Positions 31,859-64,000 of a stretch of 64,000 nt of DNA are shown in pieces (position 1 is the first letter of the stretch; each line of letters starts with the position of its first letter). The DNA lies in assembly GCA_964458565.1 (NCBI GenBank), contig CAYWJO010000001.1, positions 32,001-96,000 on the forward strand, read 5' to 3'. Position numbers and translations under genes: made by a program. Source of the stretch: an uncultured archaeon. GTDB lineage: Archaea; Asgardarchaeota; Thorarchaeia; Thorarchaeales; Thorarchaeaceae. The notes below the pieces were generated by a model. The model searched no databases and was not told the origin of the DNA. It saw only the letters and a program-made list of their open reading frames with translations.

Positions 31859-32527
31859 TCATTTCAGTAATTTCTTGAGCCGCAGTTTTTCATCAGGTTC
31901 AAGAAATCGATATCCGTCCATCTTTTCAATGGGTACATCAAGTGCCGGGCCAATACATTTCGCATGATGCCATCGATATGTTAGATGGTCTTCGTATAAG
32001 TAGGGTTCACCAATTCTGAAACGTCCCTCATCAATGATCTTACCACAAGTCCTACACTTTGACCGTCCGGATTTTGCAGCTTCGATTTTCCATACTGGTT
32101 CAGGTTCCTTCTCAGGGTCCTTCAAGGCATCCAAAAAATCGATTGGTTTGTGCTTGACCATCTTAGATGTCAACTTCAAAACGAATGAGTCATACTCACT
32201 CGGTTTGAACAGGATTTCAATATCTCCATTTTTCAAAAGATCTTTCGTAGACATTGCAGGAGGCCACTGTGCCTTGGTCTTCATATACTCCAACATTTGC
32301 ATGCTCAGAATCCGATTTGCTTCCTTTTTGGGAATCTCTCTCACTCCACTAGATTCTGCAATCCCAAACGAGGTATCCACATATTTTATGCCTTCGTCTG
32401 TCACGCCTCTAGTCTTTGTCAAGACGATACTACCAATGGGAATGGTTTTTTGGTGTTTCTTGAGTTTCAACGACTTCTGGTCAATCCAGTATGCCCATTC
32501 GGAATCATAATCTATTCTTTCACTCAA
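31859..32527 (-). CDS. Protein with C-terminal PARP-type zinc finger
   Basis: IEAAKSGRSKCRTC...I.....RIG...WHHAKC matches the zf-PARP CxxC..HxxC signature. Confidence 0.85.
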   Translation of the reverse strand: MSERIDYDSEWAYWIDQKSLKLKKHQKTIPIGSIVLTKTRGVTDEGIKYVDTSFGIAESSGVREIPKKEANRILSMQMLEYMKTKAQWPPAMSTKDLLKNGDIEILFKPSEYDSFVLKLTSKMVKHKPIDFLDALKDPEKEPEPVWKIEAAKSGRSKCRTCGKIIDEGRFRIGEPYLYEDHLTYRWHHAKCIGPALDVPIEKMDGYRFLEPDEKLRLKKLLK

Positions 32528-59897: not shown

Positions 59898-60500
59898 ATG
59901 ATCGACGAACCAGTTGTATTTCACATTCAAAAAGGACGATTAGTGAAGATGCCTGATCCGGGTGTATTTGGAAGAGGGGACTGCTATCTAATTGATGCAG
60001 GTCCCAAAATCTATCTGTGGATTGGACCCAACTCGAGTGTTGATGAGAAATTCCTAACAGCTGCATCCGCAGTTATGAAAGATACAGCTAGAAAAGGACA
60101 TGCGGATATTGATAGAATCGAGGGCGGGAATGAACCTGATGGATTCAAAGCACTGTTCGATGATTTCAGGCTGACAGATGAAGATACTGAAGGTATTCTC
60201 AAACATGTTCAATTGCAAAAGAAAGAATTCAAACTGTGGCGGGTACATCATGAAGGAGATGAAACATTCTTTGCGGAGGTGCCATTGAACAAGTCGAGTT
60301 TACATTCAGATGATGTCTACATATTGGATACGTGGGAGGACATCTTTGTATGGCGGGGAAAGGAAGCAAGTGCCAGGGAGAGATTTGATGCCACGATACT
60401 AGCACGACGCTACGATGCCGAGCGTGTAGGTGTACAGGAAATAGAACTTATCGAAGAGGGAGAAGAACCTCAAGAATTCATTGTTGCATTACTCGACTAA
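59898..60500 (+). CDS. Two-domain gelsolin-like actin regulator
   Basis: GDCYLID....IYLWIG..SS.DEK...EGGNEP..F and L.SDDVYILD...IFVWRG.EAS..E...EGEEP.EF. Confidence 0.9.
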   Translation: MIDEPVVFHIQKGRLVKMPDPGVFGRGDCYLIDAGPKIYLWIGPNSSVDEKFLTAASAVMKDTARKGHADIDRIEGGNEPDGFKALFDDFRLTDEDTEGILKHVQLQKKEFKLWRVHHEGDETFFAEVPLNKSSLHSDDVYILDTWEDIFVWRGKEASARERFDATILARRYDAERVGVQEIELIEEGEEPQEFIVALLD

Positions 60501-60509
60501 ACTAAAGAT

Positions 60510-61949
60510 TCAGACCATTCTGAAGTGCCCAGGGCGTGGTTCGAAAACCACGCCATCATCTTTCATTTTCCCAAGCTCCCTCGCTGCAATATGTGTGGCA
60601 ACACCTGCTTCCTCAGCTATCTCTTTTATAGTGGGACCTAGAGACCCACTCTTCCCAGAATCAAGTCTTTTAATTGAGCGTAGTATTTTTGTGTTGTATT
60701 TGTAAGTTGGGTGCTCCTCACCCCAATCTTTCGCGGTTTCTGCTCGTAATGATGTTATCTCAATGTATTCACGTAAAGCTGGTTCGAGTATACTATCCCA
60801 TTCCTTTTTGATATCCTTGGCAGTCACACTCGCTCTCCATCCAGCCCTAGCAGTAGATCGTGCTAGACGAAGTGTACTAAGAGGTCTGCCAAATACATCA
60901 GCATCTAGCAAGTTCCCACGGGTAAGTACATCAGCTCTGAGATCAAAGCTATCTCTGAGATGTTCAAGACGCTCTATCACATGAGCGGTCCCATTATCTA
61001 CACTCTTCTGTGAAACGGTAGGTGAAAGCATTTGGAATGTAATAGCAGATTTGAGAATAGGGAGTCTTAACTCTCTAACATCAGTCCGTTCAATCCAAAA
61101 ATCCTCAGTGGTTAATGCCAGAGGAATGTCAGGGAGAGCAGCTGTGTCTGTATCAGTTAAACTACTAAGAGATACTTCTCGAAACCCGGAAGGATCCCTG
61201 CGTTGAACGCATAACATATCCATCTTCTTCTTGCTTATTTGTCCGACATCAAGACGCCAAATTTTGGGTATATTGACACGCATTCCTCGTACTGCACGGG
61301 TTTTCCAGCGAGTTGAGCGAAGTGAAGGAGGGAGGATTTCCCTCATGAATCTGAGAAGGCGTTTCACTTGAGGTTTTGAAGCTAGCGCTTGAATTCCAGC
61401 CGTGAGACCACCAACACTTTCAAGGTATGGAGGACTTGAAATGTATAGTCGTGCAAAAACACGTTTGCTACTCTCAGCCATTCCTACATGTTCAAAAAGC
61501 ATGCTTGATAATTCTCTGAGATTGAGGGGGGGTTTCATCTCAGAGAGGAACTCTAATTTCTGCGACTCTATTTTTTCAGCCAGGATAGTCCTAGTCACCT
61601 TTTGAGTACGTTCAAGTTGTTGAGGTGCCGCGATATTACGTCCGTATACCTCAATCATATCCCCCTCTTCAGGAAACATTGTCTCATCAGGCATGTAAAC
61701 AAAAATACCCTCTAGTAACCAAGGACTAGGAGTTAGTAGAATGATAGATTTGTTTCTTGTATGTCGCACAAAGCCTCTATATCTATAGTAGGGACCTCGA
61801 ACATGTTCTTCAAATTGATTAAGGAGCAGCCGCTCCCAATGAGTGAATTCAGTTCCCGTACCTCTATCAAAAATATCACTGACAGCAACAGCATCACCAA
61901 GCCGGTCTCGGGTAGTCATATATTTCTCTATGAGATCACGTGCATCCAT
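60510..61949 (-). CDS. Hypothetical protein resembling a degenerate MCM helicase (OB fold, inactive AAA+, winged helix)
   Basis: P..GD.IEV.G, LLRFMREILP, PLSTLRLARSTARA....VT..DI, C-terminal GVVFEPRPGHFRMV; no Walker A/B. Confidence 0.6.
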   Translation of the reverse strand: MDARDLIEKYMTTRDRLGDAVAVSDIFDRGTGTEFTHWERLLLNQFEEHVRGPYYRYRGFVRHTRNKSIILLTPSPWLLEGIFVYMPDETMFPEEGDMIEVYGRNIAAPQQLERTQKVTRTILAEKIESQKLEFLSEMKPPLNLRELSSMLFEHVGMAESSKRVFARLYISSPPYLESVGGLTAGIQALASKPQVKRLLRFMREILPPSLRSTRWKTRAVRGMRVNIPKIWRLDVGQISKKKMDMLCVQRRDPSGFREVSLSSLTDTDTAALPDIPLALTTEDFWIERTDVRELRLPILKSAITFQMLSPTVSQKSVDNGTAHVIERLEHLRDSFDLRADVLTRGNLLDADVFGRPLSTLRLARSTARAGWRASVTAKDIKKEWDSILEPALREYIEITSLRAETAKDWGEEHPTYKYNTKILRSIKRLDSGKSGSLGPTIKEIAEEAGVATHIAARELGKMKDDGVVFEPRPGHFRMV

Positions 61950-61952
61950 GCT

Positions 61953-62915
61953 TCAAACATCCCCACTCGGATTCTTTAGATACTCTTTATAGGCTCGGGG
62001 ATATCTTTCACCAAGCTCTTCTATTGCTGGAATGCGTTCACTGTAGGGAATATAATGGGAACCAAGTTCTGTTCTCTTCAGTTCTGCATCAATAATCCGT
62101 TTCATTCTACGATTGATTTCAAACCCAATGAAATGTCTCCAATTTGCTTTAGCTGCAACTGCAGTTGTTCCATTTCCCATGAATGGATCCAATACAATAT
62201 CACCAGGTCTGGAAGAATAGTCGATACAGCGCTCTACAACATCTAATGGTAGTTTCGTTCCATTTTTCGTTTCACCAGCACGATACTTCCGTTTAACGGT
62301 CCAGACATCTTCTGGGTAATGCTCTAACTTATTAAAAAAGTACTCAGCTGTGTCTTTCACAAGAAGTAGAACATGGTAATGACTGGTCACGAATTTTCTT
62401 TGTGTGAAAACACCAAAAGGATAATGCCAAATTATGTGATTTAGAATGGAAAGGCCAGCTTTGCGGGCTCCATTGAGAACGGATTCTAGATTAGTCCACC
62501 CACTAAAAATGTAGACGGATCCATCATCTCTAAGAATTCTGGGAATTTCAGCAATCCAATCCCTTGTGAAAAACGTGTACGATCCATTAGCTTCTTCATA
62601 TCCTTCGACTACCAACGATTCATCTCGGTTGTAGACACTACTCTTTCCATCGAAATCGATCCCAAAAGGAGGGTCAGCAATAACAAGGTTGATTGAATTT
62701 GATGAGAACCGACGCATTCCTTGGATACAGTCTTCGTATAAGATTGAATCAAGTGCGGTTGCATCAGATGGATTGTTCGTATCCATGAAAAGCTGTGTTG
62801 CTTCGGATGTTGTCCAATCATGTGTAGGGTGGAAGTAAAACTCAGCAAGATTGGGGATATATTTTCGAGTGCGTTTTTTTCGCGGTTCGAGAGGTATATC
62901 ATCATCAACGGTCAT
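61953..62915 (-). CDS. Beta-class N4-C/N6-A DNA methyltransferase (orphan)
   Basis: DPPF catalytic motif precedes DPFMGNGTT SAM-binding motif; GFEI. Confidence 0.93.
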   Translation of the reverse strand: MTVDDDIPLEPRKKRTRKYIPNLAEFYFHPTHDWTTSEATQLFMDTNNPSDATALDSILYEDCIQGMRRFSSNSINLVIADPPFGIDFDGKSSVYNRDESLVVEGYEEANGSYTFFTRDWIAEIPRILRDDGSVYIFSGWTNLESVLNGARKAGLSILNHIIWHYPFGVFTQRKFVTSHYHVLLLVKDTAEYFFNKLEHYPEDVWTVKRKYRAGETKNGTKLPLDVVERCIDYSSRPGDIVLDPFMGNGTTAVAAKANWRHFIGFEINRRMKRIIDAELKRTELGSHYIPYSERIPAIEELGERYPRAYKEYLKNPSGDV

Positions 62916-63005
62916 TCGCTAAGTCGTCCTTCATATTTCAAAATGGGATCATCTAATATGTACATTTTCATCCCATTTTAGCCTGTGTAATAATACAAAG
63001 TTGCA

Positions 63006-64000
63006 CTACAGTAAATCGGATGGGTCAACTCCACGAGATATGGCTTTTTGAGTCATCCAATCCATTAGATTCTCTGGTTTCTCCTTGTGTTCAGCAACAG
63101 GGCGATCAATAAGTTTTAGTGCCGCTTCAGGGCATACGATAGCACATACACCGCATCCAACACATCTCTTCGTATCAACAACACAAACATCATCGGGGAC
63201 GCTCAATGCATTAAATTGGCATCGCTCTATGCATGATTCGCATCCTGAACATAAGTCCACATCCACATGAGCAATATAGTCGGATTTGACTACAGCGTGA
63301 GGATAATCAAACTCAGCGATACCTCTCAATATTCCACAGCAACAAGTGCAACAATTGCAGATGTAATTGATTCCATCTTTAACATTAGACGTACAGTGAA
63401 CAAGTCCGGCGGTTTCGGCATCTCGAAGGATTTTATGAGCTTCCTCTTTTGTTATTGTCTTTGTAAGCTCATCGTCATCAAAGGCATTTTCCGTATTAGG
63501 CGCAAGAATTAGACACACTGTAGTTGGATAAGAGCACGGCTCACCTATCAAAGCCTTCTGTTTCTTGCAAATACACTCACGGATGCCCCAAGAAGAAGAA
63601 TTTTCGACAATATCTTGAGCCACCTCATTAGGATATATTTCAAGTTCGGAATCCACAACTTCATTCACAGCTATTACTTTGAAGGGGGCTGGCTCTGTGC
63701 TCAAAACAGTTCTAAAACCATCCTTCAAATAGAATTCTTCGAATCTATGGGCAAAATCGGAATCCATACGTCCTAGTTGTTCTTCATATATTCCAACTGC
63801 AAAGGGCATCAATCCATATCTTCGAACTCCGGTACGCGATGAGGTCCACGCTCTAATCTGACCCTTTTGGTGCATGGTTTCTAGGAGATTCAGTAAAACT
63901 TCCGAATCATAGTCAACACGCTCACTAATCTCAACAAGTGTTTCTCCACGCAGTTTAAGCTCGCAGGCCAATTCTGCTTCTTCTTCGGTGAAAATCCATT
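63006..64000 (-). CDS. Fe-S protein with C-terminal 2[4Fe-4S] ferredoxin domain (5' end beyond the window)
   Basis: CIC, ICNCCTCCCG, CSGCESC..RC, CVGCGVC..VCP; frame open to the window edge. Confidence 0.85.
   Translation of the reverse strand, partial: WIFTEEEAELACELKLRGETLVEISERVDYDSEVLLNLLETMHQKGQIRAWTSSRTGVRRYGLMPFAVGIYEEQLGRMDSDFAHRFEEFYLKDGFRTVLSTEPAPFKVIAVNEVVDSELEIYPNEVAQDIVENSSSWGIRECICKKQKALIGEPCSYPTTVCLILAPNTENAFDDDELTKTITKEEAHKILRDAETAGLVHCTSNVKDGINYICNCCTCCCGILRGIAEFDYPHAVVKSDYIAHVDVDLCSGCESCIERCQFNALSVPDDVCVVDTKRCVGCGVCAIVCPEAALKLIDRPVAEHKEKPENLMDWMTQKAISRGVDPSDLL

Follow-up and report, generated by a model that had tools for sequence, protein, structure and literature searches.

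Why should a gene for a DNA methyltransferase lie three nucleotides upstream of a gene whose product resembles the replicative helicase MCM, and does the arrangement reflect a joint function? The pair lies near one end of a 64,000-nucleotide window (positions 32,001 to 96,000 of contig CAYWJO010000001.1, GenBank assembly GCA_964458565.1) from an uncultured Thorarchaeota archaeon, a placement that agrees with the names of the homologs recovered. A first-pass annotation, made from the letters of the window, had proposed that an orphan methyltransferase and an inactive MCM relative (hereafter pseudo-MCM) form a two-gene system coupling methylation to replication, or alternatively a novel defense pair. 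The analyses below establish what both genes are and that their arrangement is conserved; they do not establish an obligate two-gene system. The reading preferred here, which we hold about as strongly as we doubt it, is that a non-catalytic MCM paralog shares a transcript by descent with a persistent orphan methylase of the adenine type, the paralog binding DNA, MCM, or Orc1/Cdc6.

The 479-amino-acid (aa) product of the downstream gene had no match in Pfam (nothing significant), NCBIfam, or PADLOC, and no MCM family of Pfam was listed for it even at E values of up to 10. A first clue came from the last 120 residues, which matched the MCM C terminus (E value, 0.005). An exhaustive profile search identified 77 relatives, of which ∼45 were full length (440 to 490 aa) at roughly 20% identity. 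The family profile matched MCM chains in the PDB (hmmsearch; E value, 2.7e−9), with its C-terminal part aligned to MCM at 96.6% by hhalign, and alignment of the family with 25 Asgard MCMs ran collinearly from column 150 of MCM through its end (hhalign, 97.8%). The Pfam models MCM_lid, MCM_C, and MCM_WH_arc were matched weakly by a few distant members. An alignment of 52 family sequences yielded a confident AlphaFold (AF2) model (pLDDT, 87.4; pTM, 0.84); an earlier one of 25 close homologs had given a pLDDT of 57. Among the top matches listed by Foldseek, MCM chains were found throughout (E values down to 1.5e−14), and the VIA aligner returned Z scores of 13 to 16.5 to MCM2-7, PfMCM, MkaMCM2, and MCM8/9 over residues 47 to 397, followed by RavA and BchI as the next-best folds (Z, 10 to 11). 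Residues 415 to 479 were matched by many winged helices in VIA. As Foldseek, VIA, and hhalign all agree with MCM, the protein can be described as an OB fold followed by an AAA+ core, a lid, and, at the C terminus, a winged helix (Table 1). Structural alignments begin at model residues 44 to 47, corresponding to MCM residues ∼100 to 150, and neither an N-terminal A subdomain nor a zinc finger is present; the whole protein contains one cysteine, and the CxxC stretches of MCM align to cysteine-free sequence (hhalign).

What the fold retains and what it has lost can be followed residue by residue across the 52 aligned members. By hhalign, the Walker A sequence of MCM (GDPGTGKS) aligns to LASKPQ, and a GK[ST] signature at the P-loop site was found in 0 of the 52 members compared with 24 of 25 MCMs. 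The stretch that would hold Walker B (DExD) is deleted, and the arginine finger SRFD aligns to PDIP, in a part of the alignment that is of low confidence. Conservation persists elsewhere: around the former P-loop, the segment VSSP...GGLT does not vary among the members, E258 and D274 hardly vary, and the lid keeps LRLAxSxAR, in which R368 is the sole invariant arginine of the family. R355 aligns with the sensor-2 arginine of MCM, and R or K occupies this position in 42 of 52 members, although such a residue is not known to have a role where the P-loop is missing. Because an MCM fold is combined with a missing Walker A in 52 of 52 family members, the term pseudo-MCM is well supported, and the first-pass description of the partner as an MCM-fold protein lacking ATPase motifs is borne out by the model, Foldseek, VIA, hhalign, and the motif counts together.

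Pseudo-MCM was present as a single copy in all genomes searched of the window's family (24/24 and 26/26). In other Asgard families, full-length matches were sporadic and came from four genomes, two of which may represent mis-binned Thorarchaeota contigs. Distant full-length members occur in Odinarchaeota and Methanomethylicaceae, where they are named just "hypothetical protein," and by features and shape the nearest ESM Atlas clusters were three unnamed archaeal clusters, commonest in Methanobacteriota, with true MCMs next. No description of the family was found in the literature on inactivated or degenerate archaeal or Asgard MCM paralogs, the coverage of which was incomplete, so that novelty is unproven. 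The canonical helicase is encoded separately. In this genome (G000), the true MCM gene (C5:92938-95199) is intein bearing: in its open frame of 1,228 codons, the MCM domain is interrupted after roughly position 71 of the Pfam model, a break that fits an intein in the Walker A region. The same contig carries two orc1/cdc6 genes, 5 to 25 kb away. One canonical MCM gene each was identified in 39 of 41 relatives. A mobile-element origin of pseudo-MCM was also considered and was rejected because its housekeeping neighborhood is conserved.

The upstream gene encodes a member of PF01555 (126.1 bits against a cutoff of 26.7; E value, 2.6e−36), and its motif IV lies N-terminal to motif I, the order characteristic of the beta class. 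The motifs quoted in the first-pass annotation (DPPFGIDF...YNR, FSGWTNL, NHIIWHYPFGV...FVTSHYH, and TKLP) are all present in the translation, most of their residues being invariant across 29 aligned relatives. The best NCBIfam matches were CcrM (107.7 against an equivalog cutoff of 830) and PRK11524, both far under their cutoffs. The closest PDB relatives were 9c3u and 8urk, CcrM and DpnA (E values, 1e−26 to 1e−17), whereas a cytosine-N4 enzyme was matched at just 1e−11. The protein also scores well against the PADLOC models for type II methyltransferases. The best 120 homologs were all from Thorarchaeota, with identities of at least 61%, and a family member (>50% identity) was present in 24 of 24 relatives of the same family as well as in the window's own genome.

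Which base is methylated was a further part of the first-pass proposal, which had linked the enzyme, through a resemblance to conserved orphan methyltransferases of Thaumarchaeota, to AGCT and N4-methylcytosine (m4C). An aspartate rather than a serine at the start of motif IV is typical of N6-adenine enzymes, and m4C-type enzymes usually carry SPP[YF]. Here, DPPF was invariant in the 29 relatives, with no SPP[YF]-type motif IV among them. Judged by this motif and the adenine-methylase best matches, the enzyme is most likely an N6-adenine methyltransferase; since both point to N6-methyladenine (m6A), the AGCT/m4C assignment is unsupported. Persistent orphan methylases have been described as a concept in archaea, and persistent orphan AGCT m4C methylases (HG11/16/19) exist in Nitrososphaerota (PMC10609329). 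The enzyme studied here is apparently also an orphan, being vertically conserved and having no recognizable nuclease partner in the window, although type II nucleases are difficult to recognize from sequence. Its syntenic, core-like context and its retention across Thorarchaeota agree with the first-pass view of a conserved orphan-type methyltransferase.

Word statistics for the whole genome identified GATC as the sole strongly depleted 4-bp palindrome (observed/expected ratio, 0.50; z, about −72); AGCT was not depleted (ratio, 1.03). At least eight PF01555-type stretches were found in the genome, and therefore the GATC depletion is not assignable to this particular methyltransferase; no Dam-type (PF02086) gene was found there. 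The depletion is a possible clue to a history of GATC-directed methylation or restriction.

The pairing of the two genes, which the first-pass annotation had made a test of its proposal, was followed across related genomes. In 17 of 24 relatives and in six more genomes of the family (23/30 in total), the methyltransferase gene immediately precedes pseudo-MCM on the same strand, a recurrence by which the adjacency exceeds chance. The same-strand junction seen in the window has counterparts in 15 relatives, where the gaps range from −14 to 68 nucleotides (nt), thus leaving little room for a separate pseudo-MCM promoter. Four upstream gene orders were identified: NYN-FeS-MT-X, NYN-MT-X, NYN-FeS-X, and NYN-X, where MT is the methyltransferase and X is pseudo-MCM. 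The downstream block is conserved: of the 20 loci in relatives that extend beyond pseudo-MCM, 19 have a convergent gelsolin gene as the next neighbor, and the remaining one (L014) has Fpg instead.

The methyltransferase is absent beside pseudo-MCM in seven genomes, all of which keep pseudo-MCM. Three of these (L016, L018, and L022) have the FeS-X order, and in one genome NYN lies directly upstream of pseudo-MCM. The seven are scattered on the pseudo-MCM tree, where well-supported branches force at least three changes, and the simplest reading is one ancestral arrangement that was lost repeatedly. With at least three losses of the adjacency, and pseudo-MCM kept in each, the pair is dispensable. 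A paralogous methyltransferase (54 to 57% identity) encoded elsewhere, at varied loci, was found in all seven of these genomes and in just 2 of 18 genomes with adjacency, counts that are not independent given that the genomes are related. The "elsewhere" copies group in a clade of their own that includes one copy from another Asgard family, and the syntenic adjacent-type enzymes are resolved as a separate clade. Because each non-adjacent genome carries such a paralog, it seems to be the methyl mark, and not the gene order, that is retained. The claim of an operon-like system holds to the extent that most Thorarchaeota genera keep the pair, with tight spacing; an obligate system is not supported.

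The neighbors of the "elsewhere" copies are mixed (NifU-like, DoxD, AAA_14, and FAD enzymes), and for several small ones no Pfam or PADLOC match was found. In two genomes from different Asgard families, a shared protein of 228 to 298 aa is encoded directly beside the "elsewhere" methyltransferase (L036:4816-5712 and L038:5003-5689); it has no Pfam or PADLOC match and is a candidate restriction partner. A further locus (L034:730-3594; G022:C262) carries three tandem open reading frames of the "elsewhere" type, two of which, one of these being truncated, are nearly identical over their shared part; this suggests a recent duplication or rearrangement of the paralog.

Beyond Thorarchaeota, no comparable methyltransferase was found directly upstream of five distant family members (seven loci from other archaea). 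In three Methanomethylicaceae genomes (L095 [GCA_038884075.1], L072, and L073), the homolog has cren7 on one side and a convergent orc1/cdc6 gene on the other. A+T-rich spacers (27 to 39% GC, compared with 55 to 65% in coding sequence) border the homolog at both ends and hold six copies, in both orientations, of an invariant 15-nt box, ACGAAAT[GA]AGGGTGT. These boxes appear similar to origin recognition boxes. This region is probably a replication origin with the homolog inside it, as judged by its sequence features, and it is the sole contextual evidence linking the family to replication, in a lineage that is distant from the one considered here. The spacers also hold a 132-nt direct repeat (L095:4950-7740), and TFB is a further neighbor of the homolog.

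How, then, might the two proteins act? Under the preferred reading of an orphan adenine methylase and a non-catalytic MCM paralog, the methyltransferase would be a persistent orphan enzyme of the beta class that marks the Thorarchaeota chromosome. Pseudo-MCM, with its OB fold, P-loop-less AAA+ shell, MCM lid, and MCM-type winged helix, would be non-catalytic and would act by binding and not as a motor, engaging DNA and/or MCM or Orc1/Cdc6 through its retained MCM-like surfaces, with a structural or regulatory part in replication or in the biology of the chromosome. In the ancestor of the family, the methyltransferase gene would have stood between the upstream gene and pseudo-MCM, probably co-transcribed with the latter, in an arrangement dispensable enough to have been lost several times with a paralogous methyltransferase present elsewhere each time. 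Several observations weigh against this reading. Co-transcription is probable as judged by spacing alone. A C-terminal tail, RLPxIEELAxxYPxAYxEY, is common to the adjacent-type methyltransferases and missing from most "elsewhere" copies; it could be a partner-docking peptide, which would favor a functional link, and retention of the same order across ∼11 genera hints at selection on the arrangement itself. As regards replication, pseudo-MCM (contig C1) lies away from orc1/cdc6 and the true MCM (contig C5), and the Odinarchaeota homolog and other distant ones sit among metabolic genes; for both reasons, a replication role is not supported by the Asgard context. An origin-proximal position of the locus in this genome was rejected on the same contig assignments.

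A functional link is central to the replication-coupled epigenetic module of the first-pass annotation, in which pseudo-MCM brings the methyltransferase to origins, loaded MCM, or forks, or reads its mark, so that methylation state and licensing would be coupled. We consider it rather unlikely. The tight co-directional pair in 23 of 30 relatives, the tail peculiar to the adjacent-type enzymes, and the MCM-type lid and winged helix speak for such a module, and the distant homolog inside an origin-like region beside orc1/cdc6 points the same way, as does the precedent of persistent orphan methylases linked to origins in Halobacteria (PMC10609329). Pseudo-MCM nevertheless persists in seven genomes after at least three independent losses of its neighbor, members in other lineages have no such partner, and the locus is not at an origin here; the MCM-like partner and the conserved pairing are the parts of the proposal that are supported, and an obligate link is not. 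A bolder and distinctly improbable version is that of an undescribed archaeal family of motor-less MCM paralogs that, in the manner of eukaryotic MCM-BP, dock onto MCM or Orc1/Cdc6 through the lid and winged helix and control helicase loading or unloading, with the co-transcribed adenine methylase of Thorarchaeota as the partner that ties a genome-wide methyl mark to licensing in a lineage close to eukaryotes. That the 479-aa protein still works as an NTPase or helicase, with non-canonical nucleotide binding, is very unlikely; the label "pseudo" would then be wrong. A conserved pocket may remain, given the basic sensor-2 position, the nearly invariant acidic residues, and the invariant segment around the former P-loop, but three residues separate strand 1 from helix 1 where an eight-residue P-loop is needed, none of the 52 members has a GK[ST] at the site, and no invariant arginine besides that of the lid marks an arginine finger. 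A novel defense pair, in which the methyltransferase marks self and the MCM-like protein serves as effector or sensor in the manner of BREX PglX and BrxL, is hardly credible. BrxL is among the structural matches, but far under MCM (Z, 8.9 compared with 16.5), and neither the good scores on type II methyltransferase models nor the depletion of GATC offsets a pseudo-MCM that lacks a PADLOC match and any ATPase or nuclease motif, occurs as a single-copy core gene amid conserved housekeeping synteny instead of in a variable island, and persists without the methyltransferase.

The features of the locus are listed in Table 1. The spacer upstream of the methyltransferase gene is the sole room for a promoter and could serve the pair. 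Around the pair, the window carries genes of a core-like kind (TrmB, a thioredoxin-like protein, a luciferase-like monooxygenase, an M20 peptidase, Fpg/Nei, gelsolin, and a 4Fe-4S protein), and no recognizable nuclease or mobile-element gene was found among them in a family search, as the first-pass annotation had stated. The caveat lies outside: a gene for a 233-aa protein with a nuclease-related domain (NERD) is located ∼1.7 kb past the window end (G000:C1:97681-98382), ∼2.8 kb from the methyltransferase gene and on the opposite strand. None of the relatives' loci showed a NERD gene at the corresponding place. In this genome, the NERD gene follows one with NYN and OST-HTH (LOTUS) domains, which belongs to the conserved synteny upstream of pseudo-MCM.

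Table 1. Features of the methyltransferase/pseudo-MCM locus, in coordinates of the 64,000-nt window
Feature	Position	Strand	Description
Gelsolin-repeat gene (context only)	59898..60500	+	PF00626, E value 6e−30; convergent with pseudo-MCM, 9-nt gap
Pseudo-MCM gene	60510..61949	-	479 aa; core single-copy Thorarchaeota gene
MCM-type C-terminal winged helix	60513..60707	-	Residues ∼415-479; ends YEPRPGHYRLV-like; SsoMCM winged helix 2m45, E value 3.3e−8
MCM-type lid helices	60723..60887	-	Residues ∼355-409; G-[RK]-P-x-S-x-L-R-L-A-x-S-x-A-R; hmmsearch to PDB MCM, E value 2.7e−9
Shortened degenerate AAA+ core	60900..61532	-	Residues ∼140-350; hhalign and VIA to MCM AAA+ core
Lost P-loop position	61335..61403	-	Strand 183-188 to helix 192-205, 3 residues between (model)
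OB-fold domain	61560..61811	-	Residues ∼47-130; model strands 55-129; matches MCM N-terminal OB subdomain
Methyltransferase stop/pseudo-MCM start spacer	61950..61952	-	3 nt; TGA AGC ATG
DNA methyltransferase gene	61953..62915	-	320 aa; beta-class N6/N4 amino-methyltransferase; adjacent-type ortholog
S-adenosylmethionine-binding motif I	62163..62189	-	DPFMGNGTT, residues 243-251; D243, P244, F245, M246, G247, N248, and T250 invariant
Catalytic motif IV	62664..62675	-	DPPF, residues 81-84; invariant in 29 aligned relatives
A+T-rich spacer 5′ of the methyltransferase gene	62916..63005	-	90 nt; read from sequence
4Fe-4S protein gene (context only)	63006..64000	-	Fer4 matches; upstream of the methyltransferase gene, extends past the window end

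Archaea are generally described as replicating with one MCM. A dead MCM copy that is strictly conserved and single copy across an Asgard family, and for which annotation was absent in all libraries searched, therefore offers replication biology a concrete candidate for an MCM-related factor that is non-catalytic, in the archaeal lineage nearest to eukaryotes. Its neighbor adds a taxon-wide orphan methylase for epigenetics, the gene of which is usually paired, and probably co-transcribed, with pseudo-MCM. Cooperation between the two proteins would be a first direct genetic connection, in archaea, of MCM-type machinery with DNA methylation; without it, the pseudo-MCM family still merits study by itself.

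Compared with canonical archaeal MCM (8x7t, 4fdg, and 6mii; PF00493, PF17207, PF17855, and PF21120), pseudo-MCM has a collinear domain order, a fold match over the whole chain, and a lid and winged helix that are homologous by sequence. It differs in being ∼210 residues shorter, in lacking the A subdomain, the zinc finger, Walker A, and any identifiable Walker B or arginine finger, and in falling under all MCM Pfam thresholds. MCM2 of Methanopyrus kandleri (3f8t), a naturally inactive homolog, is likewise a shortened archaeal MCM fold (VIA Z, 16.2 over 297 residues). It belongs, however, to another lineage and its sequence relation is barely detectable (E value, 0.078), and the family described here retains the winged helix of MCM and has members in both Asgard and TACK archaea. 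The eukaryotic proteins MCM-BP (PF09739) and MCMDC2 are derived from MCM, lack a working ATPase, and act on or with MCM complexes; regulators derived from dead MCM copies are known mainly in eukaryotes. Pseudo-MCM shares with them the concept of an ATPase-dead MCM relative, the homology observed being that of the general MCM fold. PF09739 (MCM_bind) was not listed for pseudo-MCM at E values of up to 10 nor for the 52 family members at up to 0.01, and an ESM Atlas feature score of 0.82 to MCM-BP is a lead only.

In BREX, a DNA methyltransferase (PglX) is likewise encoded with an MCM-like protein (BrxL), but BrxL is an active AAA+ protein within a multi-gene defense island, unlike the motif-less pseudo-MCM, which has no PADLOC match and sits in core synteny. 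Among DNA methyltransferases, the present enzyme falls well short of the CcrM equivalog cutoff and carries DPPF where the Nitrososphaerota AGCT enzymes are m4C methylases. With the persistent orphan type II methylases of archaea (PMC10609329), and with bacterial CcrM and Dam, it shares a stand-alone gene that has no recognizable restriction partner and vertical conservation throughout its taxon.

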